From Zestosphaera tikiterensis (GTDB lineage Archaea > Thermoproteota > Thermoprotei_A > Sulfolobales > NBVN01): a stretch of DNA of 64,000 nucleotides. The notes under the pieces are model-generated. The model searched no databases. It was given only the letters and a program-made list of their open reading frames with translations, and was not told the origin of the DNA. The stretch lies in contig NBVN01000004.1 in NCBI GenBank assembly GCA_003056265.1, positions 261,587-325,586 on the forward strand. Direction: 5' to 3'. Positions 7,139 through 29,474 of this stretch are shown piece after piece (position 1 is the stretch's first letter; each line of letters begins with the position of its first letter). The position numbers were made by a program, and so were the translations under genes.

Positions 7139-8776
7139 GTGCATGTTTTGAGTTTTAAAGTTAGGTTGAAGTCCCTCTTTAGAAGAAGTGAGGATAAGGG
7201 TTTAAAGGGGGGTTTAGAGGGTTCCTCTGAAGTTGCTGTTGTGATGCCTGAGGTTAGACCTGCTCACGAACTCTTAAGTGTTAAGAGAGGTTTTAAAGTT
7301 GTTGAGTCTTACCCGATTCACGAACCCTTCGCATATATAAACATCGTTGAGGAGGAAGCAACCGGCAAGCTGTTTTACGAGGTTTACGAGATTTCATTAA
7401 CTGAGGAGGAGAGGAGGATCTACGAGTCTTTAAAGGAGCACATCATATGGGAGTTGAAGCCCGTAGCTTCTTTAAACGTTGACGCAAGGAATGAAATCTT
7501 AAAAACAGCTAGGAATGTGATGAGGGAGTTTCAACTTCGCTTCACTAGAACTCCATCGCTTTCGTGGAGTAAGCTAGCTTACTACATAGAGAAGGATCTA
7601 CTCGGCTACGGAGTTCTTGAGCCTGTATTTAGGGATAGGCATATAGAAGACATCTCGTGTAATGGGCCTGGAAAGCCTGTCTACGTATGGCATAGGAAGT
7701 ACGAGTCCCTACCCACCAACATAGTGTTTAAAAACGAGTTGGAGCTCGATGAATACGTGCTTAAGTTAGCTCATATGGCAGGTAAACACATATCCGTTGC
7801 CTACCCAGTTCTCGACGCCATACTTCCGGGAGGGCATCGAGTAGCCGCGACATTCACTAAGGAAGTCTCCACCTCAGGCTCTACATTCACCATAAGGAAG
7901 TTCAGCGAGTCCCCAATAACCATAGCCGACATGATAAGCTACGGAACTATATCCTCAGACTTAGCGGCTTACTTCTGGTTGGCTATGGATTATAAGATGA
8001 CGGGCCTCATACTCGGCGTGACGGGCGCTGGTAAGACATCAACGTTAAACGCCTTAGCCACTTTATTAAGGCCCACATATAAAGTCGTAACTATTGAGGA
8101 CACGCCTGAGTTGAGGCTACCCCTCGAGAATTGGGTGCAGTTGGTTTCCAGGCCTTCATACCTAGCCGGAGGTGTTGGTGAGGTCTCCCTATACCACTTA
8201 GTTAGGGTGTCGCTTAGGTATAGACCGGACGTAATCGTAGTCGGTGAGGTTAGGGGTGAGGAGGCTTACGTACTATTTCAAGCTATAGCTACAGGGCATT
8301 CAGGACTCACTACCTTACACGCGGAGAGCATTGACGCAGCTGTGAAGAGGCTTACCTCAAAACCTATGGATATTCCGGAGTCCTACATACCTTTAATTAA
8401 CTTCGCCTTAGTGATTAAGAGAGTATCCCTCGTTGATGAGAGGGGTAGGGTCAGACCCGCTAGAAAAATAACTAACGTTTGGGAGATCAGAGACTTCGGG
8501 GAGTATGAGGAGGTTGCTAGGTGGGACCCCGCTAGGAATAGGTTCGAGCTTAAGTTAGGGAGGAGTTTAGTCCTTCAGAAGATTTCAGACTTGACTGGAA
8601 AGCCTGTCGAGGCTTTAATGGATGAGTTAGCTTTAAGGAAAGCAGTTCTTGAGTGGTTAGTGGCTTCTAAGAAGACTGCCTATAGGGATGTAGCGACTTA
8701 CATTCAGAAGTACTACCTAAACCCGAAGAAGACTTTAGAGGAGTTGGGTGTGGCTCATGCCTTCACTACGGCGTAG
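7139..8776 (+). CDS. type II/IV secretion-family ATPase (archaeal type IV pilus/archaellum assembly ATPase, FlaI/UpsE/AapE-like)
   Basis: Walker A GVTGAGKTSTLNAL, Walker B/Asp box VIVVGEVRGEE and His box TGHSGLTTLHA. Confidence 0.9.
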   Translation: MHVLSFKVRLKSLFRRSEDKGLKGGLEGSSEVAVVMPEVRPAHELLSVKRGFKVVESYPIHEPFAYINIVEEEATGKLFYEVYEISLTEEERRIYESLKEHIIWELKPVASLNVDARNEILKTARNVMREFQLRFTRTPSLSWSKLAYYIEKDLLGYGVLEPVFRDRHIEDISCNGPGKPVYVWHRKYESLPTNIVFKNELELDEYVLKLAHMAGKHISVAYPVLDAILPGGHRVAATFTKEVSTSGSTFTIRKFSESPITIADMISYGTISSDLAAYFWLAMDYKMTGLILGVTGAGKTSTLNALATLLRPTYKVVTIEDTPELRLPLENWVQLVSRPSYLAGGVGEVSLYHLVRVSLRYRPDVIVVGEVRGEEAYVLFQAIATGHSGLTTLHAESIDAAVKRLTSKPMDIPESYIPLINFALVIKRVSLVDERGRVRPARKITNVWEIRDFGEYEEVARWDPARNRFELKLGRSLVLQKISDLTGKPVEALMDELALRKAVLEWLVASKKTAYRDVATYIQKYYLNPKKTLEELGVAHAFTTA

Positions 8777-10589
8777 GAAGAAGGGTAAGGAACCTAAAGC
8801 TGGTGAAGTTAGGGAAGACCTTAAGAAGGTTGCGAAGCCTTGGGTTAAAGGACCTACGTTAGACGAGATCTTCACAGCTTTATCTCTAACGTTGTTTGAA
8901 TCCTTAGGTAGGTCTTTAGCTAAGACTTTCGAGTTGGATAAAGCATTACTTAAAGCTGGTTTAAACGTCCACCCAACTATATACGCGGCTAAGACTTTAA
9001 CGTTTACTGTTTTAGCCGCTATACTGTCGTTACTTCCAACAGCTGCGTTCATAGTTTTGATTCCAGCTAACATCATAGTTAAGGTTGTGTTGGTGGTTTT
9101 CGCGGCTGTAGTTCCTATCATGGTTTTTGCTTTAAGGCTTTCCTACCCGGCTTTAATAGCTTCAGATAGGAAGTCTGGGGTTGAGAACGAGCTCCCGTTC
9201 TTCATGGCTTACGCGTCAACCATGGTTAAAGCCGGTGTTAGCTTAGATAAGATTATTGAGAGGGTTGCCGAGCTTAAGGTGTTTAAAGCTTTAAGGGATG
9301 AGGCTAGGAGGGTAGTCACTAGGGTTAGGATGTTTGGCGACGACCCTGTCTCGGCGTTGGAGTACGTGGCTTCAAACCACCCAAGCACTAAGTTTAGGGA
9401 CGTTATGTTGGGTTACACAACGACTTTAAGGAGTGGTGGTGACGTAGTCCACTATATGGAGGTTAGGACTAGGGAGTTGTTTGAGGCTAGGATGGTTGAG
9501 ACTAGGTTAATTACTGAAAGGCTTGCTTCATTTCTAGAGCTTTACATAGTTTTAGGCGTGATTATGTCCGTAACGGTCTTCGTGTTCTTCGCTGTTTCCG
9601 GAACGCTTTCGGCGGTGTCCGCCGGGAGGACTACGGGTGTTGTTAGGGTTGATATAACTATGCCTTCACTATATAACTTCCTAGTCCTGCCTACCCTAGG
9701 GTTGGCGGTCTTACTAATGATTCACTACTCCCAACCTAAAACCCCCGTTAAGGTTATGGAGCCTTACTACACTTTAATACCTTTAATACCTGTTGCTGTG
9801 TTAGCTTTCTACATAACTTTAGCGATTACCGGAGGGTTAGGTGTGTTCAGAGGTGTTTTAGGTATTTCTGAGGTTAGGTCTTTAATAATAGCTAGTACCG
9901 TAGCTACATTACTTACTTCAGTGCCTCCATGGCTTGTCTATAGGGGAGTTATGAAAGGGCATAAGGGGTTGATTAGCTCTACAGCTGATTTCCTAAGGGA
10001 CTTAAGCGAGGTTAGGAAGACTGGATTAAGCCCTGAGAAATGTTTGATATCCCTATCTACGAGAGACTATAGGAACTTAACGCCTATAGTTAGTAAGGCT
10101 GGAGCTGCTTTATCGATAGGCTTAAGCCTTGAGGAATCCTTAAGGAGGGTTATTAAAGGCGTTAAAGAATGGTTCGTCATAGCTATCTTCAGATTCTTAA
10201 CGGACTCCATAGTGGTTGGCGGCGGATCCCCCGAAATAGTTGATGCTTTAGCTAGATTCACTCAAAGCTTAAGCGAGTTGGAGGAGGAGATGAGGAGGAG
10301 GTTAAAAGCTTACGTATTCCTACCGTACTTCGGCACGGTAATGCTCGCATCAACACCTATAATGATTATAAACTTACTAGCCACGGCAGGCGGCGCAAAC
10401 CCCGAAGCCTTAGCACCGTTAATAGCTGTGTTAGGCGCTGGCAGCATGATAAACGCATACATAATGGGTTTAGTTGCTGGGAAATCCGCCGAGATGAGCA
10501 TAGCTTCAGGTTTTAAACACGCTGTCGTAATGGTAGCTTTAACTACGGCAACCACGTTAATCACTATGTACTTCTATAAGTTAATTTAA
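8748..10589 (+). CDS. polytopic platform membrane protein (FlaJ/TadC/UpsF-like)
   Basis: A 613-aa multi-TM protein that overlaps and follows the ATPase gene. It has the two-repeat cytoplasmic-domain/TM architecture typical of FlaJ/TadC. Confidence 0.75.
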   Translation: MWLMPSLRRRKKGKEPKAGEVREDLKKVAKPWVKGPTLDEIFTALSLTLFESLGRSLAKTFELDKALLKAGLNVHPTIYAAKTLTFTVLAAILSLLPTAAFIVLIPANIIVKVVLVVFAAVVPIMVFALRLSYPALIASDRKSGVENELPFFMAYASTMVKAGVSLDKIIERVAELKVFKALRDEARRVVTRVRMFGDDPVSALEYVASNHPSTKFRDVMLGYTTTLRSGGDVVHYMEVRTRELFEARMVETRLITERLASFLELYIVLGVIMSVTVFVFFAVSGTLSAVSAGRTTGVVRVDITMPSLYNFLVLPTLGLAVLLMIHYSQPKTPVKVMEPYYTLIPLIPVAVLAFYITLAITGGLGVFRGVLGISEVRSLIIASTVATLLTSVPPWLVYRGVMKGHKGLISSTADFLRDLSEVRKTGLSPEKCLISLSTRDYRNLTPIVSKAGAALSIGLSLEESLRRVIKGVKEWFVIAIFRFLTDSIVVGGGSPEIVDALARFTQSLSELEEEMRRRLKAYVFLPYFGTVMLASTPIMIINLLATAGGANPEALAPLIAVLGAGSMINAYIMGLVAGKSAEMSIASGFKHAVVMVALTTATTLITMYFYKLI

Positions 10590-10595
10590 GCGTGT

Positions 10596-10973
10596 TTAAT
10601 AACGAACTCCCAAACCCTCAAGCAATTCTTTAAAATCTTTTGAATTGTTCACAGCTTTCCGAACGGCTTCATCCAGTAAATCCAGCCTATTCAACCTAAT
10701 CAACACAGTCTTAACTAAATACGTTACTACGAAAAGCGCTACATCCTCAATCCCATAATGTTCTTTAACAGTCTTATAGAACTCCACCGAATCATAGAAG
10801 AACATCTGAAGAGCGTTTAAACCATGCCTAGACTTAAACAAGTAGTCGAGGGTCTGTAGGTAGCCGGGGAAAGCCCTCGTAAACCGTTCCTTGACGTAAT
10901 CGATTAAATCGGAAGCTTCTATACTCACCCCCCACGGAAGAACGCATAGCGATAACCGATTAATTATTGTCAT
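10596..10973 (-). CDS. hypothetical protein
   Basis: ORF track only, with host-like composition. Confidence 0.4.
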   Translation of the reverse strand: MTIINRLSLCVLPWGVSIEASDLIDYVKERFTRAFPGYLQTLDYLFKSRHGLNALQMFFYDSVEFYKTVKEHYGIEDVALFVVTYLVKTVLIRLNRLDLLDEAVRKAVNNSKDFKELLEGLGVRY

Positions 10974-11095
10974 GGAGGTTTAAAAGATTAACGCTTTTAA
11001 AACAAACGTAAAGGATAAACAAACGTTGAAGGTTGGGAAGAATATCTTAAAGAAGTCTTCGGTAATAAAGCAAGAGGGCTTCCTCCCCAGCTTCT

Positions 11096-11422
11096 TTAAG
11101 TTTTGAGGTTTTTCAACTCTTCAGAAACTTCCCTAACTTTACTTAAGTCTACAGTAATTACGTACTCATTCTTTAAAGCTCTCTTTAAAGATTCAGCGAA
11201 AGACCTACCTAAACCTTCTAAACACTCTAAAGAATTGAAGCATTCATTCAACGAATTCACGTAAGTTAAAGACTCAACCCAAACTAAAGAACCTAAAACC
11301 TCCTCAGAATCCATAGGTTCATAACAAAGAAGACCTGAATAACGGCAAACCTCCCTCAAAACATCAACCAAACCATTACGCAAGCCAGAATCAACAAACA
11401 CAACATAACCCACACAAAACAC
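11096..11422 (-). CDS. hypothetical protein
   Basis: ORF track only. Confidence 0.4.
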   Translation of the reverse strand: MFCVGYVVFVDSGLRNGLVDVLREVCRYSGLLCYEPMDSEEVLGSLVWVESLTYVNSLNECFNSLECLEGLGRSFAESLKRALKNEYVITVDLSKVREVSEELKNLKT

Positions 11423-11440
11423 CCTTCCACTACTACACTA

Positions 11441-11677
11441 AACACTAACACTAATATATGCAGGTAAAACTTTAAAAACTTTAAACACACTAAATTTGAC
11501 TACGTCAAACTCTAGAGAAATCCCGTCACGAAGCCAATCTTTTACTATAATATCGAATATCGTGAGTAGTTCTACTAAGAGTTCCTTAAAGACGTCTAGA
11601 ACTTTCTTTAAACTAACTCTTAAGTAAGCCTTAGCTTCCCCTCTTTCGCTGGAGTTAATGCCTACTCTTACATGTGA
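11441..11677 (-). pseudogene. open frame of 79 codons with no start codon; possible gene remnant at the left edge of the island
   Basis: My own translation of the minus strand gives SHVRVGINSSERGEAKAYLRVSLKKVLDVFKELLVELLTIFDIIVKDWLRDGISLEFDVVKFSVFKVFKVLPAYISVSV. There is no ATG/GTG/TTG until near the end. An open frame this long is unlikely by chance in AT-rich DNA. Confidence 0.3.
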
Positions 11678-11747
11678 TTAGATTTTCTAGTTTGATAAGC
11701 CTATCTTAGAAAGTCTAGTTGGGTTAGGTTTTCTAATTCCTCTGTGA

Positions 11748-11761
11748 GTGTAAATTTACAC
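11748..11761. repeat. perfect 14-bp palindrome GTGTAAATTTACAC (copy 1)
   Basis: Read directly from the sequence. An identical copy lies at 17957-17970, a 16-bp variant AGAGTAAATTTACTCT at 17818-17833, and a half-site in the left arm at about 13536-13543. Confidence 0.9.
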
Positions 11762-11834
11762 TTAAGTATGGATTAACTACACCACAAGAAAGTAATAACA
11801 TGTTGTTACGGGTAGGAGTGGGAGAAAAAGAACC

Positions 11835-12767
11835 TTATCTACCGAATCTGCCGAGGATGTTGGTGTGTATGTTACTCTCAATGTTGTAGAGCTCGAACCT
11901 GAACTCTGTATTGCTGAACTCTATTACCGAGTATATCTTAACCACCAAGTGAGTGGTCTCATTGTTCTTTATGTGCGATACCCACCAGTCGCTTAGCTTG
12001 GCTATATCTATCTTTGTTGCGAATGGGAGCACGGTGTCGGCTTTAGCCTTCAGTATTACTGGGTTATATGTAGTTCCCTCGCCTATCTTTATGTTGTTGA
12101 CATAGATCTCGTAATCAATCCTAGTCACAGGTATAGGCACCGCCTGGTGGTTGTATATTGTAGCCCTATGGTTAACCTCTATTACGCTAGGGGATACAGA
12201 ACCCCATATAGACTCTAGGCTCTTCAAAGTCAGCTTGACAGGTCCAACGCTCATGTCTCTCGGCTCATTAGTGTTAAGTCCAGCCAACAGGTTCGTCTCA
12301 AGCTTTGACGAGAACTCGAATGGATAGGCGAATTCCACGGCCTTCAGGTCGAATAATATATTACCAGTTATCTTTACAGTGCTTACCTCATGCTGGTTAA
12401 TGTGTGATGCCAGTCCCTCAGGTATCTTCCTGCTATTGATCAGGCTCTTCAGGACTATAGCTGACTCTGTTTTTGCTGGGAGGCTTATATTAGTGCTTGA
12501 CCCAGATACTATTTTTATATCGTTCAAGTACATGTCGAAAGCTACGCTTTTCACCGGGATAGAGAATGGATTTGGATTATACACCACAATACTTGTTACC
12601 ACTTCCGTGGTGTCGCTAGTGACTGTCCCCCATGAACTAGCAATACTTTTAACCTCAGGCTTCATAGCCTCGCTCGGGGGCTTAGCACCATAATAAAAGT
12701 AGTAGCCTACTCCTAGGGCTACAACAATTAACACGAGGATTAAGAGGACTAACACGCCCTTACTCAT
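11835..12767 (-). CDS. membrane-anchored protein with tandem LEA_2/WHy (LEA14-like) domains
   Basis: An N-terminal TM helix is followed by two repeats of the pattern VxVxNPNPFxIPVxxxxYxxYxNxxxIxxG (VVYNPNPFSIPVKSVAFDMYLNDIKIVSG and TIYNHQAVPIPVTRIDYEIYVNNIKIGEG). Confidence 0.7.
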   Translation of the reverse strand: MSKGVLVLLILVLIVVALGVGYYFYYGAKPPSEAMKPEVKSIASSWGTVTSDTTEVVTSIVVYNPNPFSIPVKSVAFDMYLNDIKIVSGSSTNISLPAKTESAIVLKSLINSRKIPEGLASHINQHEVSTVKITGNILFDLKAVEFAYPFEFSSKLETNLLAGLNTNEPRDMSVGPVKLTLKSLESIWGSVSPSVIEVNHRATIYNHQAVPIPVTRIDYEIYVNNIKIGEGTTYNPVILKAKADTVLPFATKIDIAKLSDWWVSHIKNNETTHLVVKIYSVIEFSNTEFRFELYNIESNIHTNILGRFGR

Positions 12768-12982
12768 GTTTTATCCTCCAATAATCTATAGGAGTTCCCA
12801 TATATTTTGTCAACCAACTGAACAGGATATAAGGGACTCCTGCTGTAAATAGGTTAATAAGATAGGGCAAACCTCCTACTACCCTTAGTAAATTAGCTTT
12901 CCTAAAGGGTTATCGAGTTCTGTGAGCACTTTTAAGCTTTGATACCTGAATGTCGGGTAAAACAGAACTTCAAGTTAGCTTC

Positions 12983-12998
12983 GATAAGCTTATCAAAG
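12983..12998. repeat. 16-bp direct repeat GATAAGCTTATCAAAG (copy 1; copy 2 at 13547-13562)
   Basis: Read directly. The two identical copies lie 564 bp apart and bracket the left arm. Each contains the palindrome GATAAGCTTATC. Confidence 0.9.
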
Positions 12999-13043
12999 AA
13001 GTGAAGGTGTCTCCATTTATAGCATTATCCATTTGAGAGAACT

Positions 13044-13562
13044 ACTCAGAGTAATACTCAGAGTAATGAGATTTCCTACGTAGAGCAATTAAAAAGTATT
13101 CACCTAAGACAATTAGAAAATGAAGAATTTTCAGGCCTCATGGAGATTGGGAATTCGTCAAATAAAAAAATTACGGAATGGGATAATGGGAAATTTAGGT
13201 GGGATAATGGGAAGGTGAATGAAATTCACGCATCGATTATCCCGCTGTTGATTATCCCATTATCCCGGGATATCCCGGGAAGACCACGCGTAGCTTCCCA
13301 TTATCCCATTATCCCACTCTCAAAAACAATATGGGATCCCTAGCGGGATAAACGGGAAAACTGGGAAACCCCGATCAAACAGCATGAGTTTTACATACTA
13401 CTTCATCCTACTAGAAACTAACCCTAGAAACTAGGATCCTCTTCAAACATCCTCCCTAATCCTCCCTAACACACTCTTCAACCAACCCTAACGTAAACCT
13501 AGAACGTTTAATCGGGGCTTGCTCTTTAACTGCGGATTTACACTCTGATAAGCTTATCAAAG
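13044..13562. repeat. left arm of a diverged inverted repeat of about 0.5 kb (non-coding, iteron-rich)
   Basis: By-eye alignment shows it is colinear with the reverse complement of 17945-18431. Shared blocks run from ACTCAGAGTAATACTCAGAGTA at the outer end to ATTTACAC..GAT.AGCT at the inner end. A core of about 100 bp is roughly 85-90% identical. Confidence 0.85.
13179..13370. repeat. iteron array, motif GGGATAA/TTATCCC (at least 8 exact copies on both strands), centred on the palindrome CCCGGGATATCCCGGG (13264-13279)
   Basis: Forward copies start at 13180, 13201 and 13345. Reverse copies start at 13237, 13252, 13260, 13301 and 13309. Degenerate copies also occur. Confidence 0.85.
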
Positions 13563-13579
13563 CTAAGTTTTCTAAGGAC

Positions 13580-13697
13580 TTGAAGATCTTAACAGAGATT
13601 ATCAATCAGAGAAATAGCTAGGAAGGTAGGGCTTAGTAAATCAGCAGTTCATAAAAGACTAGGGAAAATACTTAAAAAGGAAGGGATACACGTTTAA
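13580..13697 (+). pseudogene. frameshifted remnant of an Lrp/AsnC-type HTH
   Basis: Frame 2 gives KDLKILTEIINQRNS*. Frame 3 gives QRLSIREIARKVGLSKSAVHKRLGKILKKEGIHV*. Joined, they match the Lrp/AsnC N-terminal HTH pattern. There is no intact start and a 1-nt frame break near 13590. Confidence 0.35.
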
Positions 13698-13765
13698 GTA
13701 ACGATTAACCACGCTGCTTACAGATTAACTTAAGTAGTTAGTTTTACGGGGATGTTTTAGGTATA

Positions 13766-13793
13766 TCTTTTATATTCTAGGGCAATAACCTAG
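13766..13793 (+). promoter_or_regulatory. candidate TATA box plus small inverted repeat (CTAGG-N7-CCTAG) upstream of the AbrB-like gene
   Basis: TTTTATATT lies about 25 nt upstream of the TTG at 13798, which fits a leaderless transcript. The inverted repeat at 13777-13793 is flanked by TATATT on both sides. Confidence 0.3.
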
Positions 13794-13797
13794 TATA

Positions 13798-13992
13798 TTG
13801 GGGGATGCCTTGGGTTGTGTTGATTTAAGTAGGTGTGTTAAGGTTAAGATATTAAAGTTAAGGAAGAAGCAGAAGGGGGTTGACGTTAGAATACCTAAGG
13901 AAGTCGTGGAGAAGATGAATTTAAAAGGCAAGGAGAAGGTTGAGGTATACGTAGATTATGAAAACGGACTCATAATATATAAACCGTTTTAA
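13798..13992 (+). CDS. AbrB/SpoVT/MazE-type swapped-hairpin DNA-binding protein
   Basis: VRIPKEVVEKMNLKGKEKVEVYVDYENGLIIYKP matches the SpoVT-AbrB domain pattern (v.IPkev.e.lgl..Gd.v.v....g.i.i.p). Confidence 0.7.
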   Translation: MGDALGCVDLSRCVKVKILKLRKKQKGVDVRIPKEVVEKMNLKGKEKVEVYVDYENGLIIYKPF

Positions 13993-13993
13993 G

Positions 13994-14200
13994 GTGGGAA
14001 ACATGGTTAAATGCCCTTACTGTGGCTACGAATCAAACATAAACGACTTTAAACTTCTTAGAAATCCATGGAGATATAGGTTCTACGAGGTTAGGAGGCT
14101 TGAATGCCCTAAATGCCGTAAAGTATTCAACTACTACTACGAAGTAACATCTGAAGGTAAGGAAGTTAAGTTCATGATTAGAGTAAAGCCTAGAGGGTGA
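13994..14200 (+). CDS. small zinc-ribbon protein
   Basis: Two CxxC pairs (CPYC ... CPKC). The start lies 1 nt after the AbrB-like stop, which suggests translational coupling. Confidence 0.6.
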   Translation: MGNMVKCPYCGYESNINDFKLLRNPWRYRFYEVRRLECPKCRKVFNYYYEVTSEGKEVKFMIRVKPRG

Positions 14201-14296
14201 TGAAGCGTCCGAGTTTGTGATTGGGATGAGGTTTGGGGCTGTGAGTATGTTAAAGGTGATGATGAACAGATAAGAAAGGCTTTGAAGGTGTGAAAG

Positions 14297-15841
14297 TTGA
14301 GTAAGGTAGGTCTGGAATTTACTCAAATAAGCTTTGCTTCAGAGGTAAAGGATTGGATAAATGAAATCATTAAAAACGAAAGATTAAGGTTTGAATACGC
14401 TGATATTGAAATAAAGGACCCACGTCGGAAAAGGGCTGATGTAATCCTATGGGAGAAGAGGAGAGAGAAGAAACCAGCACTTTTAATTGAGATATGGGAT
14501 CCAAGCACCCCTCCTTGGGAGGATGCGTTAGATTCCGCCTTAGCTAAAGCATGGAAAAACAATATCCCTTATTTTGTTGTATGGAATTTAACGCACTTCT
14601 ACTGTTGGGATACTTTTAAAGAGGGTGAAGTGATAGATAAGCTTTGGTGGCCTCATGCAGGCGTAAGCGAAGTAGTAACTAAGGCTTTAACGTATGAAGA
14701 CGCTATTTTAAAGTATAGTGAAGGGATTAAAAACTACATTAGAAATTTCCTTAAGGAGTTTGAAGAGGTTTATTACGGTATTAAGGCTAAGCCTTTACTT
14801 GGGATTGATGAAAGATTCATCTATAGGTTAAGAGGCACGATTCACGCACTATCGATACCTGTTTTTGAGGAGTTAAAGAAGAGAACGCAGGAAGACATCC
14901 GGTTTAAGAAGGAGCTTATCAAATACTTTAAGGAACAAGGATGGACGTTTAAAGGAACGGACGAGGATTTCGAAAGAGTAGCAAGGCAATACATCTACTT
15001 ACTTACCAACAAATTACTTTTCTACAACGTTCTCCGTACAATCCCCTCATATAGAGAACTACCTAAGATCGAGATCCCCAAGGATGTCACAACCGGTGAA
15101 AAGCTAAGGGATATACTAAATTCTTACTTTGAACGTGCCTTTAAGACAACCGGAAATTACGAGACAATCCTACTTACAGATTTCTTAGACTCCATAATCC
15201 CGCCGGATGGTGTGGTTGAAGGTCTTAAGGAATTTATCCGTAAGATAAGCGATTACGACTTTTCAAAGATTACATATGAAATCTTAGGAAACATATTTCA
15301 AAGGCTAATACCGGAGGAGGAAAGGCATAAACTCGGTCAGTACTTCACGAGGTCTGATGTAGTTGACCTCATAGTAGGTTTCTGTGTAAGAAATGCCGAC
15401 GATAAAGTGTTGGATGGTAGTTGTGGTGCGGGGACGTTTCTAGTGCGGTCTTACGTGAGGAAAAAGCTACTTAACCCTAGTAAAAAGCATAAGGAGCTTA
15501 TTAAGGAACTATTCGGGATTGACATCGCGAAGTTCCCAGCTCATCTCTCAATCATAAACTTGGCTAGTAGAAACCTATCAGAGGTTGAGAACTACCCTAA
15601 CATCATTCATAAGGATTTCTTCGACGTAAGCCCAAGTGGGAAATATCCCTTAACTGATGTAAAGCATAATGAAGTAAAGCATAAAGTTGAAACTTTAGGT
15701 AAGAAAGAGTTCTTTATTGAAATACCAGAGTCTTTTGATGCTGTAGTGATGAATCCACCATACACTAGGCAGGAGGAATTGGAGGACATACTTGAGGAAG
15801 AAAGAGCAAAGCGTATGATGTATGCATTAAGGATTGGATAG
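14297..15841 (+). pseudogene. type IIG restriction-modification enzyme, fragment 1 of 3 (N-terminal nuclease-like region plus the N6-adenine methyltransferase core)
   Basis: Methyltransferase motifs GQYFTRSDVVDLIV, motif I VLDGSCGAGTFLV and motif IV VVMNPPYTRQEE. The reading frame breaks near 15796-15810, and the protein continues in frame 1. Confidence 0.8.
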
Positions 15842-15954
15842 ACCTTAGAAGCGATAAATACAGGAAAAACAACCCTCCAAAGCTTAGCAAGAGGTCAAGT
15901 ATCTACGTTTACTTCTTCATCCACGGAGCTAGGTTCTTAAAAGAAGGCGGTAGG

Positions 15955-16737
15955 TTGGGGTTGATTACTTCAAACTCTTGGCTGGACGTTGATTATGGCG
16001 GAGACTTGCAAAGATTCTTTCTTGAAAACTTCAAGATAATCGCTGTTATTGAAAGTAAGGTAGAGAGGTGGTTTGAAGACGCCGATATCAACACAGCGAT
16101 AACGATACTTGAGAGATGTAGCAATTCAGAAGAAAGAAATAACAACTTAGTCAAATTCGTCCAGCTTAAGAAACCTCTATCTGAATTCATACCTCCAACA
16201 AACGATGAAAACGAAAGGTGGAGAAACGTTGATAAATTAGTTAACTTCATAGAATCTAAAAACCAATACTTCGAAGATGAAAACATAAGGATATTTGTAA
16301 AGAAGCAGGAGGAGCTATGGGAAGAAGGTTACGATGAAGAGAAAAAAGAATACGTTGGAACAAAGTGGGGCAAATATATTAGGGCTCCAGAAATTTTTTA
16401 CAAGGTCTTGACTACCAAAAAAGATAAATTTGTGCCTCTTAAGAAACTAGCAAGAATCGGTCGAGGTTTAAGGACAGGTTTCAATTCCTTCTTTTACTTA
16501 AGTGCTCAGAAAGCTGAAAAACTCGGAATTATGAACTTTACACGTCCACTAATTAAATCTCCAAAGGATAGTGAGTACACTCTGTTAAGTAAAGCTAAAT
16601 TGCGAAATAGAATTTTTACAGTAAATGAGGAATTAAATTCTCTTATAAGGACAAAAGCTTATGACTATATAAAAATGGGCGAGAGAAAAGGGGTGCCTCA
16701 AAGACGAGGTAAAAAAAGAAAAATGGTGGTCCTTTGA
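15955..16737 (+). pseudogene. type IIG restriction-modification enzyme, fragment 2 of 3
   Basis: Frame 1 is already open from 15796 (..DLRSDKYRKNNPPKLSKRSSIYVYFFIHGARFLKEGGRLGLITSNSWLDVDYG), which is the expected continuation after NPPY. The fragment ends at a frameshift in the A7 run at 16711-16717. Confidence 0.8.
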
Positions 16738-16777
16738 GGAGGAATGTATAAGGGCTGATTTATTTATTCCAATCCAA

Positions 16778-17707
16778 TTGTGGGAAACATATAAAATATT
16801 TCTTAATGATACAAAAGAACACATACTGTTTGATCAGCAATTGAGCGGTCTTAAATTTAAGGATTTTAAGACAGCAAAGCTTGTTTGTGCAGTATTAACC
16901 TCTACCCTAGGCAACTTATTCTTGGAGATTGTAGGAAGAAGTCAGCTTGGTCAGGGGTCATTACAACTAGCGACTATAGATCTCCATAGCCTTCCTTGCT
17001 TGATTATAGCAGAGGAAAAGATAATAGAAAAAATTTTCAAGGTTTTTGAAAAACTATGTGAAAGAAAGATTTTAACTATCTATGAAGAGATCGGTGCAAG
17101 TTCGCCAGAAGGAGTTTCCCTAAATAAAGTAAAGCCTGATAGAAGGGAATTAGATAAAATCATAATGGGTGAAATCTTAGGCTTAACTGAGGAAGAGCAG
17201 TTAGAGGTTTATAGAGCAGTTGTGGATCTTGTTAGGTCGAGGCTTGAAAGAGCTAAAAGCGTTCAAAAGAAGAAGGTTAAGGAGCTGAATGTTGACGATC
17301 TTGTGGATTCTGTTTTAAAAGAATTAGAGGAAGTTCACGGTATAAAGGCTAAAGAATTCCCGGAAGAGTACATAGGGAGGTGTGAGTATAAAGTTGTTGA
17401 AGTTCCAAAGGGGTCTGAAGTTGAGGTTGGTTATGATTTAAGAGGTCCGTACGTTCGAATAGATAATGAAAAGGTTAGATGTTCTTCAATTTACGAAGCA
17501 AGGTTCATAGGATATGCTGTTTTAGCTGGTAAGACCAAGATAATGGTACCTAAAGATGAAAACATATTGAAAAAAGCTGTAGAAGAAAGAAGGAAGTTCC
17601 TAGAGGAAGCAAGGATGAAGATAGAGGAATTTATTAATGAAACGATAACGGATAAAAAGCTAAGAGAGGATGTAAAGTTTAAAGCATTTAAGAAGCTAGG
17701 CATGTAA
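16778..17707 (+). pseudogene. type IIG restriction-modification enzyme, fragment 3 of 3 (C-terminal target-recognition region)
   Basis: Frame 2 is open from 16673 and reads ..KKEKWWSFEEECIRADLFIPIQLWETYKIF.., continuing fragment 2 across the A-run. Confidence 0.75.
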
Positions 17708-17817
17708 CACTATTTATGAGAACCCTAGACGCTATAAAGTTTTCTAATTAAGAGCATATATGTGAATACCTGCAAATCTCATAAAGAGGGAAGACTTTAA
17801 AAACATTATCACTATAG

Positions 17818-17833
17818 AGAGTAAATTTACTCT
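17818..17833. repeat. 16-bp palindrome AGAGTAAATTTACTCT (variant of the GTGTAAATTTACAC family)
   Basis: Read directly from the sequence. Confidence 0.85.
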
Positions 17834-17944
17834 TAAAACACATTCCAACCTACACTAAAACCTCAGAAAAGCTAATTAAAATAAAAAACTAGATTTTCAG
17901 AGTTTATCAAGAACTGAAAATTCACTCAACCAGCTTTCTTAGTT

Positions 17945-18431
17945 AAGCTCATCAAAGTGTAAATTTACACTCAAGAACAAGCCCCGACTAAACACTCCAG
18001 GTCTGCATTAGGGTTAGTTGGGGAGGATGTTAGGGAGGATTAGGGAGGATGTTTGAGGAGGATCTAGTTTTCGAGATTAGCTTTCTAGCAGGATGAAGCA
18101 GTATGTAAAACTCATGCTGTTTGATCGGTTTTGTCCCGGTGTGTCCCACCGTCCACGCGTCTGTCCCAAGCTGTTTTAGAAAGTGGGACAGTGGGACAAT
18201 GGGACACCACGCGTGGTGTCCCGGGACAATGGGACAATCGCCGCGTGAATTTCTTTCGCTGTCCCATTGTCCCAATCAAATGTCTCATTTGTCCCAAACT
18301 AAAAGATTTTCAATTCACGAATTCGCGGTTTCCATGAGGTTCGAACGGCTTTCAGCATTTAATTGCCTTTGCCGAATGCTTTTTAATTGTCCAATGTTCA
18401 TATATATTGTACTCTGAGTATTACTCTGAGT
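17945..18431. repeat. right arm of the diverged inverted repeat (reverse orientation relative to 13044-13562)
   Basis: See the left arm. It contains the palindrome GTGTAAATTTACAC (17957-17970), the shared core (about 18021-18128) and the outer-end sequence GTACTCTGAGTATTACTCTGAGT (18409-18431). Confidence 0.85.
18132..18296. repeat. iteron array, motif GGGACA(A)/(T)TGTCCC (12 copies on both strands), centred on the 22-bp palindrome GGGACACCACGCGTGGTGTCCC (18201-18222)
   Basis: Copies start at 18132, 18142, 18172, 18185, 18193, 18201, 18217, 18223, 18231, 18260, 18268 and 18290. No GGGATAA copy occurs in this array. Confidence 0.85.
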
Positions 18432-18474
18432 GTGCGGTTTAATCATGCTTATTAATTCAGATATGTTAAGGTAG

Positions 18475-18789
18475 TTGGTGTTAAGAGTGAGAGGCGAGGG
18501 AAAGACAACCATCGAGGTATCGCTTGAGACTAGGGAACTGCTTAGGAGGGTCTCCCAGAGGGTTGGGATGACTTACGACGAGGTTCTTAAGATGCTCCTA
18601 GAATCATTCGAAAATCTGCTGAATTGCAGAGTTAGGGTTGATGAGGTCGTAGGCGACGTTATCTTGGTGTGCGACGTCGGTGAGGAGGAGCCTGAGGAGA
18701 TAAGCATAGACAGGAGGGAGTATAGAAGGCTTAGGAAGGTTTTGAAGTTCCTACTGAAGCCTAAGGAATCGCTCCACCCTACCTACTAG
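18475..18789 (+). CDS. putative ribbon-helix-helix (CopG/Arc-like) DNA-binding protein
   Basis: The N-terminus TIEVSLETRELLRRVSQRVGMTYDEVLKMLLE fits a strand-helix-helix pattern. Composition is host-like. Confidence 0.5.
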   Translation: MVLRVRGEGKTTIEVSLETRELLRRVSQRVGMTYDEVLKMLLESFENLLNCRVRVDEVVGDVILVCDVGEEEPEEISIDRREYRRLRKVLKFLLKPKESLHPTY

Positions 18790-19202
18790 AAAACTGGATG
18801 GGTTGAAAGTTTTACTTTCTAAGCAGCAGGTGGGATTCGTGCTGTTTGGTTGTGTCTTTTAAAGTGTTTTTCAATTATCTGTGGGCGGATACGCTAGGGT
18901 TGATCTTGATGATCGGATAATGTTACCAATGAAGATTAAGTTATGCGTGGCTTGTTTTGTTTTCCTATATTGCCTATAGCGGTTTTGTGGGGGTATTTTC
19001 TTAACGATAGATGGTGTTGTCTTACGGATTTATTAACTTTTCCTTACTTTACTTGCCCTAGTTGAAGATGAGGAGGTTTTAGTTTTTCAAACTTGATTTA
19101 TGGTAGGTTTAAGTCTTAAAGGAGGTGATGGGTTACTTACGTTATTACGTTATGGAGTGTTTATTAGCTTTATTTAAAGATAATATTATGGTAGTGGCGT
19201 AA

Positions 19203-19796
19203 GTGATGGTGTTCATGTATAACATACGTGGGGGGCAGGCGAACTTATTTGTGGTAGTTATGTTGGTAGGTCTTGTTTTAGTTCTTGGTGTAAGTCTTGC
19301 GGGTTATTTCTCTACCTACGTAGCTAGCGTTAGTTCTGAAAGCAGTCTTAAAAACGCAATACAGTATGAGATAGCTAATACGGTCGTATATAAGGAGTTC
19401 GATAGCGGTACGGCTGTATGGTTGGGTTTGATAAGGATAGATGGGTCTAGCACTACATACTACATGCTCGTTATAAACACCTCCTCCTGCGTATGGCAGA
19501 GGATCTCCGAAGAGAATATCGTGAGCAACCTACTAAGCAACGGTTTAGAGGGTGTTAGGGCTGGAAGATCCGTAGATTTAAACAGCGTGTATATATTAGA
19601 TCCAGACGGAAACCACATCCCCATAAAGACATACTATAGGGGGTCATCACCTATAACGATATATGAAATCTTCGTTGAAGCGGGCGGTAAGCCTAAACTC
19701 ATAGGACCGATACCGCATGGGGGAGGGTGTGTTGAGGTCGTGTTTTTAACCCTCGCAAACAATAACTATTATGAGGTAGGTAAGGTTTATGTATAG
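19203..19796 (+). CDS. pilin-like protein with a class III (type IV prepilin-like) signal peptide
   Basis: The N-terminus ..NIRGGQANLFVVVMLVGLVLVLGV has a basic residue plus Gly, followed by a hydrophobic helix. An ATG at 19218 is a plausible start. Confidence 0.6.
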   Translation: MMVFMYNIRGGQANLFVVVMLVGLVLVLGVSLAGYFSTYVASVSSESSLKNAIQYEIANTVVYKEFDSGTAVWLGLIRIDGSSTTYYMLVINTSSCVWQRISEENIVSNLLSNGLEGVRAGRSVDLNSVYILDPDGNHIPIKTYYRGSSPITIYEIFVEAGGKPKLIGPIPHGGGCVEVVFLTLANNNYYEVGKVYV

Positions 19797-20970
19797 AGTA
19801 AAACCTTCAAGAGGTCAGGCGGAGATAATAGGTGCTACCATAGCTTTAGGGTTGCTAGTCCTAGCTATAGCGTCTATGTTAGCGATAATGCAGAGAACAT
19901 CAGCAACATCAACAACAAACTTCGCAAAAAGAGTAAACTTCGAGAATGAAAGACTTTCAGAGAAGCTAAGCGTTACATACAACTCAACAAGTGGGGAATG
20001 CATCCTAAGAAACTACGGCTCACTAGACACGGTAATCATAAGAATATGGAACAACAACCAACACTACGACAGTAAATACGGCGATCACAACCTTCCAATA
20101 GTTTTAAAACCTAACGAAGAAGAAAGATTTACCTTCAGCGAAACACCACAATACATAGTTACGTCAAGAGGAAACGTAATACCGTTTAAAAACATGTGTG
20201 AAGAATTAAAACAACGTCTAACAACCCCCCCATCTGTTGGCGAAAGCTTTATAAAGTCTGAGGATGTATTGACGGGAGAAGCGAATTTTAAACCAACAAA
20301 AGATAGAGCCATAGTATGCTCTATTGAGATTGGTAATACAAGACCCACGTGTTATGTAGCATATAACTTCACTAATTACGGTAAAATATGGCGTCGATAC
20401 AATCCTGTTAACGGTTGGGAAAGTAACATTAACGCTAGACTTACTTCCGACACCGACCGTGATGGTGTTAACGAACTAACGCTTGTAGACGATGCTTGGA
20501 ATGAGATCAATTTTACAAGAGGTCAGAGCCCTACTATAAGGGTAACGTTCGTTAATTCTACGATTATAGATGACGATACAGACGTTATCTACGTTACGTA
20601 TAGACTTGCCGTTAATGCTATAGTAAGTAACGCTGCTGCACCGTTCGGGTTTAGTTTAAGTAGTTTTGTAGAATTAACGACAACCAATACTGGTGCGACA
20701 TTCCCAGCTGCGGTTAGCTTTATCTCTATACCTAGGTCTGAAAAAGTAGGGGGTTCTTATAACGTAATTGCTATCCTTGAAGCAAGTGTTGCCATACCGA
20801 GGAAGGCATATTCGTCGTTAAGTGGTTTATTACAGCCCGGGATCTATAATTTAACCATAACAGTTTTGATTAATAATCCACAACAAGGTTCTGCGGATTT
20901 TGCTAAGGCTGTACGTCTTGAGAGTGTAACGATAACGGGTGCTGAAATAAAATGGTATGAAAAGATATAG
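19789..20970 (+). CDS. large pilin-like / pilus-associated protein with a class III signal peptide
   Basis: MYRVKPSRGQAEIIGATIALGLLVLAI is a typical PibD-type processing site (RG|QAE). The gene overlaps the upstream pilin-like gene. Confidence 0.6.
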   Translation: MYRVKPSRGQAEIIGATIALGLLVLAIASMLAIMQRTSATSTTNFAKRVNFENERLSEKLSVTYNSTSGECILRNYGSLDTVIIRIWNNNQHYDSKYGDHNLPIVLKPNEEERFTFSETPQYIVTSRGNVIPFKNMCEELKQRLTTPPSVGESFIKSEDVLTGEANFKPTKDRAIVCSIEIGNTRPTCYVAYNFTNYGKIWRRYNPVNGWESNINARLTSDTDRDGVNELTLVDDAWNEINFTRGQSPTIRVTFVNSTIIDDDTDVIYVTYRLAVNAIVSNAAAPFGFSLSSFVELTTTNTGATFPAAVSFISIPRSEKVGGSYNVIAILEASVAIPRKAYSSLSGLLQPGIYNLTITVLINNPQQGSADFAKAVRLESVTITGAEIKWYEKI

Positions 20971-21437
20971 CTTAGAACTAGTAGTTTTCACATTCATCTT
21001 TAAATTAAATGGCTTAAATGTTGTTAGGTTTTTAGTAGCGTTTGTTTTAACGCCTTCAGCGGTTTAATATCGTATATTTCCTTCAATAATCTTAATATTA
21101 AAGCTTTGTTAAGCACTACCTATATTTAATGACTTGTTAATAATACGTAAATTCTTACTAAAAACATCCTCAGCTAATAATTACTTAATTTTCACGATTT
21201 CCCCTAGGTTTAAACATGCTTTATTTGAAGTTTTACGTAGTGTATGTAGTGAGTTTATGTTATTTGCTGTGAATGCATTAAGTAAGAAAGCAAGGTAGTT
21301 AAGAATATGGGAACACAGTCCTCGTAAGGTGATGTAAGTTCTTAAAGTTAAAGCTATGTGATCATGAAGTTTTAAGTTTATTAACAGTAGTGTTTATAAA
21401 GGAGTGCGATACATTATATTATTGGAGGTAATTAAAT

Positions 21438-21905
21438 ATGGATACACGTAAAGCAATATCACCTATACTTGCTACAGTAATCCTAATAGCTGTAACTCTA
21501 GTAATAGCGATAGGAGTTATAGGCTGGATAATGGGCATATGGGGCTCTCTAGGAGGACCTTCAGAAAGCCTAGTAGTTACAGGCGGAGGAACAGCAACAG
21601 GTACTACTAACAGTCTAACTTTTACTGTGACAATAGTTAATAAAGGTTCAGGTTCAGCAAAGTTATCGAGAATTGAAGTATCTGGTATAGGTTCAGTAGG
21701 TTCAAACGAGAACGTCAAAGATGATGGCACGCAGAAGCAATTGCAACAGGTAGAAATTAAACCAGGCGAATCTCATACTGTGGAAGTAACTCTTGGTAAT
21801 TTAGGAAGTTTTACATGCGTTGTTGGCGCTACTTATAACGTTAACGTATATACTCAGGCAGGTAATGTATATAGTACTGTAATACGTGTTACTAGTTGCT
21901 CGTAA
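21438..21905 (+). CDS. archaeal type IV pilin (DUF1628 / archaeal pilin N-terminal domain)
   Basis: MDTRKAISPILATVILIAVTLVIAIGV is the canonical archaeal pilin/flagellin-like N-terminus. Confidence 0.75.
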   Translation: MDTRKAISPILATVILIAVTLVIAIGVIGWIMGIWGSLGGPSESLVVTGGGTATGTTNSLTFTVTIVNKGSGSAKLSRIEVSGIGSVGSNENVKDDGTQKQLQQVEIKPGESHTVEVTLGNLGSFTCVVGATYNVNVYTQAGNVYSTVIRVTSCS

Positions 21906-29084: not shown

Positions 29085-29474
29085 TTAACGTATTCCAACC
29101 TCATTAAGGACCACCGTAGCAACTTCATAAAGTCCTTTAACCACGTCTTCACCGTAGGTTCTGGGTAAGTACCTCGCACTTATGTATGCGTCGTTCATAA
29201 CTTCCACAGCATATTTATGTTTTTCATATAGAAGCCATAGGTTAGGTTTAACTTGCTTAACCTCCTCGAATAACTCTCTTAAATTACGTGTGTGTGGGTA
29301 ATGACCTAACTCCACAGCTAGTACGTACTTTAAAGCCAGCTGAACTGCTTGCTCACAATGAAACGCTGCTAACTCATACATACCGGATTTTAAATCGTCT
29401 TCAACAGCATGTAGAAAGTCCAGCGCACGTTGTTTAAGTGCTTCAACGTCCTTTCTAGACATCCTACGCACCAA
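29085..29474 (-). CDS. HEPN domain protein
   Basis: AAFHCEQAVQLALKYVLAVELGHYPHTRNLRELF and the C-terminal AYISARYLP match the HEPN (PF05168-type) pattern. Confidence 0.75.
   Translation of the reverse strand: MVRRMSRKDVEALKQRALDFLHAVEDDLKSGMYELAAFHCEQAVQLALKYVLAVELGHYPHTRNLRELFEEVKQVKPNLWLLYEKHKYAVEVMNDAYISARYLPRTYGEDVVKGLYEVATVVLNEVGIR

Follow-up and report, generated by a model that had tools for sequence, protein, structure and literature searches.

Paired arrays of GGGA boxes in an orphan, strain-variable defence island of the archaeon Zestosphaera tikiterensis

The ribbon-helix-helix (RHH) protein ParG, of TP228, binds 20 degenerate ACTC boxes that have 4-bp AT spacers and lie in mixed orientation. 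The array serves as both operator and centromere (PMC3130281). In a similar arrangement, omega of pSM19035 binds contiguous 7-bp heptads in mixed orientation (PMC9499535). Here, we describe an array built from GGGA boxes in Zestosphaera tikiterensis. It is found in a 64,000-nucleotide stretch of chromosomal DNA (hereafter, the window; coordinates count from its first letter). The array occupies one of two inverted arms, left and right, that flank the cargo genes of an 8.6 kb island.

As in the ParG (parH/OF) and omega arrays, boxes of 4-7 bp with A/T-rich spacers recur with a period of 7-8 bp, in many contiguous copies and in mixed orientation, over a span of 100-200 bp. The ParG and omega arrays also adjoin a small RHH-type gene; here, the neighbouring gene is a low-confidence candidate for an RHH fold. 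Other aspects differ. The box is GGGA, rather than ACTC or WATCACW, and there is no gene for a ParA, ParF or delta ATPase nearby (no member of the ParA/CbiA family was detected in the window). The setting is an archaeal chromosome with two inverted arrays, of differing box variants, 5 kb apart, and binding is predicted. The array is best classed with operator or centromere arrays of short boxes, and its archaeal defence island is an orphan that varies between strains. What sets it apart is the pairing of arms with different box variants. To our knowledge, cis-acting arrays of such complexity are almost undescribed in Crenarchaeota, and we know of none from uncultured Zestosphaera-like Desulfurococcaceae.

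AbrB and Abh provide a second comparison. These proteins recognise TGGNA pairs with A/T-rich spacers, direct or inverted, and leave multi-tetramer footprints of more than 40 bp (PMC3025583). Many of the boxes in our arrays read TGGGA, which is an instance of TGGNA. The arrangement TGGGATAATGGGA is present, direct and inverted, and corresponds to TGGNA pairs with A/T-rich spacers, here of 3 bp. MraZ repeats belong to the same comparison. Furthermore, a protein with an AbrB/MazE fold is encoded in the cassette between the arms. However, the spacers are 3 bp, compared to 4-5 bp in Bacillus, and the promoter of the AbrB-like gene (at ~13767) is ~400 bp from the boxes. In addition, a related module of AbrB, Zn-ribbon and restriction-modification (RM) genes, on JGI contig L114, has no array in the 230 bp upstream of its AbrB gene. 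From the window and L114, the array neither abuts the AbrB promoter nor travels with the AbrB gene.

Two collinear arrays of GGGA boxes

The arrays comprise the following elements.

13177-13370: left-arm GGGA-box array; 18 boxes in the order FFFF-RRR-(palindrome)-RRR-FFFF (F, forward; R, reverse); each box is YGGGA followed by T or A, YGGGA(T/A)A
13264-13279: perfect 16-bp palindrome CCCGGGATATCCCGGG; left arm only, the right arm having an 11-nt gap there
13277-13299: imperfect dyad GGGAAG..ACGCGT..CTTCCC; its right-arm counterpart is the perfect 22-bp palindrome at 18201-18222
18128-18300: right-arm GGGA-box array; 12 boxes, all GGGACA; collinear with the left array and including the perfect 22-bp palindrome GGGACACCACGCGTGGTGTCCC (18201-18222)

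The initial annotation, drawn up from sequence alone, had described the left array as a cluster of exact GGGATAA repeats. Sequence reading and a motif search placed all eight copies as annotated. Forward copies start at 13180, 13201 and 13345 and reverse copies at 13237, 13252, 13260, 13301 and 13309. At the background rate, 0.018 copies are expected in these 192 bp, and the remaining 63.8 kb of the window contain six more. Hence, the motif is enriched. The finer points of the description also held. The perfect 16-bp palindrome is present by sequence reading and is followed by the ACGCGT-centred imperfect palindrome, which reads GGGAAGACCACGCGTAGCTTCCC. Tandem copies with 8-nt spacing, TTATCCCATTATCCC, occur at 13252/13260 and 13301/13309. 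Degenerate copies are found at 13333 (GGGATCC), 13354 (GGGAAAA) and 13363 (GGGAAAC).

The array is bigger than first described. Between 13177 and 13370 there are 18 GGGA boxes, compared to 1.2 expected (P about 1e-15, Poisson). Twelve are GGGAT, six are GGGAA and none are GGGAC. The boxes are in both orientations and mostly 8 nt apart, with other spacings of 9-15 nt. They form runs of two to four at 8-9-bp spacing, with A/T-rich spacers such as TAA and ATT. In ~1.3 Mb of other loci fetched, no 200-bp stretch had more than nine GGGA boxes. Across both arrays, tracts of GGG are followed by A in 30 of 30 cases. This indicates base-specific readout, rather than G-tract structure alone.

A second arm was implied by the initial annotation and does exist. 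A repeat search, MAFFT and blastn all aligned 18431-17938 collinearly with 13044-13562. The right arm (17938-18431) is thus in reverse complement orientation, and the arms are 72% identical overall. There is no further full copy within the 64-kb window. In a gapped global alignment, identity varied by segment: 23/23 for the outer pair of palindromes, 64% for an A/T-rich spacer, 74% for the box zone, 86% for a conserved core and 78% for the inner end. Within the box zone, GGGA/TCCC columns were identical between arms at 45 of 46 positions (98%), compared to 78 of 114 (68%) for other columns (Fisher P=1.7e-5). Conversely, the base after the box was shared in none of seven aligned boxes. This base is T or A on the left and C in all 12 boxes on the right. 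Since the GGGA columns are kept while the next base is consistently changed, the tetranucleotide is under purifying selection. Judged from the alignment, neutral divergence does not give such a pattern; selection for another specificity, or two lineages of the element, would be needed. Two collinear arrays, with GGGA kept and the next base differing at every aligned copy, amount to a natural specificity experiment. They could be used to map the recognition code of a small archaeal DNA-binding protein. The initial annotation had missed these arm-specific box variants, as well as the palindromic boxes that bound the arms and the rearrangement between strains described below.

An open reading frame (ORF) of 67 aa (13140-13343) is open across the repeats. 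We considered whether the cluster might be due to chance or be a real small gene, which is scarcely credible. The Poisson P for chance is below 1e-15. As the initial annotation had proposed, the ORF is the repeats read as WDNG / IIPL. A coding role was rejected because frame-breaking indels of 1, 11 and 15 nt separate the arms, as seen in the right-arm copy. Six arm ORFs, joined as a single query, returned nothing at E <= 10 from 5.8 billion proteins. Mismatches in the core were distributed 7/10/9 by codon position, with no 3-base periodicity. Together, the indels, the lack of homologues in this search and the lack of codon periodicity indicate that the region is not coding. We conclude that the array is real, non-coding and under selection. 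Judged from its sequence, it most likely binds a small DNA-binding protein.

Instead of being bound by a protein, the arrays could form structured nucleic acid. This might be a hairpin or cruciform, a structured RNA, or G3N5 G-quadruplexes, and the T-to-C change would be compensatory. Predicted single-strand folds of both arms are far stabler than those of shuffled controls (z=-4.0 left, -6.9 right). A consensus stem, between the second forward and second reverse blocks, keeps its pairing via four to five double changes, and the conserved non-box blocks GAAATTCACGC, CCACGCGT and CTYTCWAAAACA fall in loops. However, any inverted array of identical boxes gives such statistics, and the covariation is confounded with the swap of box variants. 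The predicted pairing partners also differ between arms. GGGA is 98% conserved, whereas a stem would tolerate compensated change anywhere, and a G-quadruplex would not require the A that follows each GGG. The array is not enclosed by a conserved promoter and terminator. Rfam 15 had no match to the whole window at the gathering score. The same was true of each arm at permissive thresholds, where only chance microRNA-like hairpins emerged (E>0.7). RNAalifold gave weak, unconvincing structures for the core. We regard a structural role as improbable.

One further candidate was dropped. GGGAC is the BsmFI/BpuSI site, and the boxes might have been sites of the resident type IIG enzyme. Outside the arms, GGGAC occurs 47 times, compared to 45.4 expected, and GGGAT and the 6- and 7-mers are likewise undepleted.

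Arm architecture and a predicted binding platform

The arms, and the genes next to them, are organised as follows.

11648-11762, plus strand: third, partial arm copy, consisting of the core end, a degenerate P1 (11690-11709) and sequence past the box, then a P2 palindrome (11747-11762)
12979-12998: P1a, outer 20-bp palindromic box CTTCGATAAGCTTATCAAAG
13043-13066: two tandem 11-bp palindromes TACTCAGAGTA; 23/23 identical in both arms
13067-13176: A/T-rich spacer; GC 0.33; 64% identical between arms, with small conserved blocks
13086-13096, minus strand: TATA-like CTTTTTAATTG; outward-facing, with the tandem palindromes 21 nt downstream
13371-13526: conserved core; 130/156 (83%) ungapped and 133/154 (86%) gapped identity with 17973-18128
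13543-13562: P1b, inner 20-bp palindromic box CTCTGATAAGCTTATCAAAG
13563-13830, plus strand: leader; 92% conserved with strain L116; holds a frameshifted mini-helix-turn-helix (mini-HTH) remnant and the AbrB promoter TCTTTTATA (~13767)
13798-17707, plus strand: cargo A; AbrB/MazE-like gene (13798-13992), Zn-ribbon gene (13994-14200) and Eco57I-like type IIG RM ORFs (14297-15841, 15955-16737 and 16778-17707)
17938-17971: right-arm inner end; P1c (17938-17957) overlaps the 16-bp palindrome P2, AGTGTAAATTTACACT (17956-17971), by 2 nt
17973-18128, minus strand: right-arm core, inverted
18379-18389, plus strand: right-arm outward TATA-like CTTTTTAATTG, then two tandem palindromes (18410-18431), upstream of the putative RHH gene
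18475-18789, plus strand: putative RHH protein; candidate binder

Hence, the left module is ~590 bp (12979-13562), with the array in the middle and 20-bp palindromic boxes at its bounds. The tandem palindromes at 13043-13066 look like an operator. Past this point, the similarity of the arms fades over ~35 nt with no sharp terminus. At both arms, the outward promoters are putative assignments from TATA-like sequence. The right-arm counterpart of the A/T-rich spacer (18301-18409) has a GC of 0.36. A single exact copy of TACTCAGAGTA also lies at 48691-48703, inside an AglB-like oligosaccharyltransferase gene, and is probably due to chance (about 0.03-0.06 expected).

The core is C-rich and includes two perfect 29-mers and repeats of CCTCCCTAA. 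Between 13440 and 13500, and between 18005 and 18065, CCTCCCTAA occurs twice and is joined by one more CCCTAA, all on the same strand. Consequently, the opposite strand reads TTAGGGAGGA. With its four G-tracts, this sequence resembles both telomeric and Shine-Dalgarno sequences. It is conceivable that the core specifies a C-rich small RNA that resembles an anti-Shine-Dalgarno sequence, or forms a G-quadruplex.

The third, partial copy (11648-11740) had an alignment score of 56, compared to 27.6±4.5 for a shuffle control that used the opposite strand of the right arm. The P2 palindrome AGTGTAAATTTACACT recurs after it, at 11747-11762. A supposed degenerate arm copy at 18821-19113 was discarded; the repeat matches were not collinear and are taken as chance.

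Searches for related arms were made in several collections. The core 21-mer was not found in viral or genome contigs, and an 18-mer gave 28 chance matches in metagenome contigs. A degenerate box pattern had four matches in viral contigs, with no arm similarity beyond the pattern itself. BLAST against phage and plasmid collections found no match to the arms. Similarly, BLAST and k-mer cluster scans of 80 syntenic loci identified no arm homologue, and the few k-mer clusters inspected were coding repeats.

We favour a model in which the arrays form a nucleoprotein platform that would control or maintain the island, flanked by the outward-facing RHH promoter on one side and by the leader of the cargo, which points inward, on the other. 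We consider the chances of this to be about even. Briefly, dimers of a small sequence-specific protein would coat the array cooperatively. The binder would read 4-5 bp per dimer, as do RHH or AbrB-type β-sheet readers. Candidate binders are the putative RHH protein, outside the right arm, and the AbrB-like, Zn-ribbon and decayed mini-HTH proteins on the inner side. On its outer flank, the complex would have a promoter and operator (serving the RHH gene at the right arm) and, on its inner flank, the cargo's leader and promoter. From here, it would regulate or maintain the horizontally acquired defence island, like the combined operator/centromere arrays of ParG or omega. The T/A and C variants imply either that the arms differ in binding specificity or that they stem from separate lineages of one element. 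The conserved tandem palindromes and TATA-like element in front of the RHH gene support the model. Nevertheless, we infer all three of its components: binding by a protein, the binder's identity and the effect of the complex.

Several observations weigh against the platform. Homologous arrays were not found in our searches, so the binder cannot be deduced from co-occurrence. The lack of a ParA-type ATPase near the arms speaks against a functional partition site. The L114 module is without an array in the 230 bp upstream of AbrB, and the AbrB-like gene has kept its own promoter, ~400 bp from the boxes. Hence, AbrB needs no array for autoregulation. In strain L116, the arm core and leader are retained, but AbrB is missing from the locus. 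The RHH assignment comes from a model with a predicted local distance difference test (pLDDT) score of 55 and a sub-threshold family match. Finally, inverted boxes are automatically self-complementary, so a hairpin, cruciform or RNA role would fit the same covariation. If the array is merely the operator of a local repressor, it would be an ordinary regulatory element, though a well-documented one, of an orphan mobile island.

The initial annotation had proposed a cooperative protein-binding array of the kind seen in replication origins, centromere-like sites or transposon ends. A selected, non-coding array of binding type is supported by the sequence evidence, and the centromere- or operator-like version best fits the anatomy. 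The origin and transposon-end versions failed on features that were tested, as follows.

An origin, relic or active, of an integrated plasmid-like element would use the boxes as Rep iterons. As in iterons and archaeal oriC regions, the repeats lie beside an A/T-rich stretch (GC 0.33, directly beside the array) and have diverged by lineage. Furthermore, the arm-specific variants resemble iteron divergence of the incompatibility type, the island was horizontally acquired, and a small RHH (CopG-like) candidate gene with its own operator adjoins the array. However, plasmid iterons are ~17-22 bp and helically phased; the boxes here are 7-8 bp, with a spacing of mostly 8 bp, and both orientations are represented. 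An initiator gene is also lacking. We scanned window ORFs of at least 110 aa, and island ORFs, against Pfam and NCBIfam; integrase, transposase, recombinase, Rep, primase, helicase, Orc1/Cdc6, WhiP and ParA proteins were not found. Origin recognition box (ORB) and mini-ORB sites share a TCCA..GGAAAC dyad that flanks an unwinding element. No ORB-like motif was present in the arms at up to two mismatches. The same was true of the ucm motif ATTATACAAAC, which is known in Sulfolobales and Desulfurococcales (PMC12141716). The GC-skew profile of the window is dominated by gene orientation, and no plasmid or phage record searched matched the arms. An origin is most improbable.

RM units with long, imperfect inverted repeats on either side have been described as transposon-like (Furuta, Abe and Kobayashi 2010, PMC2853133). 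Accordingly, the arms could be long terminal inverted repeats of a non-autonomous RM element, and the boxes subterminal transposase sites as in Tn7, Mu and plant hAT/CACTA elements. Like those RM units, ours has deviant GC, imperfect inverted repeats (~520-bp arms around low-GC cargo), no transposase and a strain-variable locus. The island is missing from the syntenic locus of relatives, and the third, partial copy suggests a repeat family. However, the repeats of Furuta and colleagues are tens of bp (e.g. 60/65 and 26/26) with no internal box arrays. Here, the arms are ~520-590 bp, modular and just 72% identical, and no transposase was found in the window. Inspection by eye revealed no target-site duplications at the candidate boundaries. 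The fading of similarity past the operator leaves the arms with no defined terminus, and the outer end of the right arm carries the promoter of a resident gene. In addition, the two ends differ, T/A versus C, at every aligned box, which is unexpected if one transposase binds both. We give this explanation little credence.

Rearrangement of arms and cargo between strains

The neighbouring LEA_2 gene has a 97% homologue on JGI contigs L116 and L117. L116 matches window positions 10500-12902 in reverse orientation, with 90-97% identity. Conversely, it matches 13398-13831 (core, P1b and leader) in the same orientation, with 87% identity. Hence, the core-P1b-leader unit is inverted relative to LEA_2 in L116. 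Homology ends at window position 13830. Beyond this, L116 carries a different cargo (961-1695), comprising a 63-aa ORF and then a membrane-anchored DUF4352/DUF5067 protein; AbrB, Zn-ribbon and RM genes are missing there. Thus, the same leader would drive two unrelated cargos. On the LEA_2 side, both strains have a P1 box ~80 nt from the junction, with different sequence past it. In L116, this box (1913-1932) holds a perfect TTGATAAGCTTATCAA. L116 also has an extra ~170 nt, between two P2 palindromes, that is absent from the window. A second contig from the same sample as L116, L121, is 99.9% identical to the window cargo. Hence, both alleles co-occur in one community. The whole island is missing from the relative L006, but no empty site is seen in the close strain L116, which carries a different cargo.

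Some contigs end in the core. L001 stops at the 3' end of the perfectly repeated 29-mer (window position 13399) and L116 starts one base later. L115 ends inside the right-arm core, at about 18007. Assembly breaks in the core are expected for a repeat.

On L114, the AbrB/Zn-ribbon/RM module is beside a split SSV-type (Phage_integr_3) integrase gene (477-1099, two ORFs). The 230 bp between the integrase and AbrB genes contain no box array. Hence, the arms are not an intrinsic part of the RM module.

The main rival to the platform is that the arrays assist recombination. In this case, P1 would be the crossover site of a recombinase encoded elsewhere. The arrays would be accessory or synapsis DNA, as at cer/psi or res, and the cargo would be inverted or exchanged between arms. 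P1, which consists of 7-bp arms around AAGCTT, occurs four times in the island, at module boundaries, compared to 0.54 matches expected in the whole window. The rearrangement in L116 is consistent with such a role: the core-P1b-leader unit is inverted, the cargo is different and P1 is ~80 nt from the LEA_2-side junction in both strains. So are the ~170 nt between two P2 palindromes that the window lacks, and the presence of both cargo types in one metagenome sample (L116 and L121). A P1-like sequence, TAAGCTTAT, also lies between the split integrase gene and AbrB module of L114, but this match is not statistically significant.

Other data do not fit. No recombinase gene is among the window ORFs of at least 110 aa. 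Homology between strains runs through P1b, and there is no P1 box at the leader/cargo breakpoint (13830). Between P1a and the 97%-identical flank, the 76 nt have diverged but are still related. P1b overlaps a decayed HTH frame (DKLIKA), so its conservation could be partly a coding relic. Finally, the two orientations come from two strains, rather than from one population shown to switch. We view a recombination role as unlikely, though with some real chance of being correct.

The pdif modules, and the Xer accessory sequences cer and psi, provide an analogy. There too, short inverted-repeat sites centred on 6 bp delimit the modules, order and orientation vary by strain, and accessory binding DNA lies beside the core site, as the arrays might here. 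However, P1 has 7-bp arms and is fully palindromic, no recombinase is linked, and breakpoints are not all at P1. The arms of dif are 11 bp (archaeal dif: PMC2958812).

Taken further, the locus might be an archaeal module-shuffling system and a counterpart of pdif modules or shufflons. P1 and P2 would be crossover sites and the two-specificity arrays would be synapsis platforms. The system would invert or exchange defence cargos (RM or the DUF4352 membrane protein) between co-occurring strains. We consider this distinctly unlikely. Even so, a defence cassette has been inverted and its cargo replaced between strains, close to short palindromic boxes. Should a dedicated recombinase be responsible, the locus would reveal how defence islands are shuffled in archaea. 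Either the recombination-accessory role or a specificity switch between two binding proteins would, if true, give the array added weight.

Island, cargo and neighbouring genes

The island (10590-19200) is 8.6 kb of extra DNA between upsF and o197. It is missing from the syntenic locus of L006, the closest relative with enough flanking sequence, where the gene order is upsE-upsF-pilin-o197-o393-SHMT. The UpsE-like ATPase has its best matches, of 76-80% identity, in Zestosphaera-like metagenome-assembled genomes (Desulfurococcaceae). The flanks contain housekeeping genes and an Ups-like type IV pilus locus, and the DNA is chromosomal. The GC content of the cargo is 0.35-0.39, compared to 0.42-0.47 outside. 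The island is horizontally acquired. It splits the pilus locus into two parts, 7139-10589 and 19203-21905 (T2SSE ATPase, T2SSF membrane protein and UpsA-like pilin), and the pilin gene order is also unlike that of L006.

The product of 13798-13992 has an AbrB/MazE fold (Pfam E=1e-8). The type IIG RM gene is frameshifted into three ORFs, the first two of which align to consecutive parts of one PADLOC model, REase_MTase_IIG. The same three ORFs occur on an independent Logan contig (L115). Hence, the split is probably a real inactivation, not a sequencing error. In L114, the AbrB promoter is conserved (TCTTTTATA..CTAG..CCTAGTAT), and the Zn-ribbon ORF runs on into the RM protein, at its nuclease-like N-terminal portion. 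A 16-nt match between L114 and the island upstream of AbrB, TAACTCTTAAGTAAGC, was rejected as not significant (E=0.75).

Within the leader, the mini-HTH remnant (13593-13697) matches HTH_24 at 31 bits, which exceeds the family cutoff, and an HTH_AsnC-type family is also above its Pfam cutoff. The decayed gene (13581-13697) would encode the peptide QRLSIREIARKVGLSKSAVHKRLGKILKKEGIHV, ending at a stop codon, with the first helix (KDLKILTEI) in another frame. In L116 (about 190-330), the gene has the same split, a 10-nt indel and a TTG start. By hand count, there are five synonymous and four non-synonymous codon changes. The C-terminal part may still be expressed.

For the RHH candidate (18475-18789), a single-sequence model predicted a β-α-α arrangement with a pLDDT of 55, too poor for a fold search. 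The protein has a weak match to the BfmA/BtgA N-terminal family of NCBIfam (E=1.4e-3, below the cutoff), and no match in Pfam or to solved structures. None of its three alternative start codons are on record. A joint search with the AbrB, Zn-ribbon and RHH proteins returned only a relative of the Zn-ribbon protein.

An 80% homologue of LEA_2 occurs in another context on L119/L120 (4111-5713). It is ~4.5 kb from a ParA/CbiA-like ATPase, which has small ORFs on its flanks and is accompanied by a MoxR-like AAA protein. Hence, the LEA_2 gene may itself travel on mobile or plasmid-like DNA. Elsewhere in the window, a HEPN-domain protein (29085-29474; Pfam E=3e-26) is encoded just upstream of the TBP gene and may belong to a HEPN/MNT toxin-antitoxin pair.

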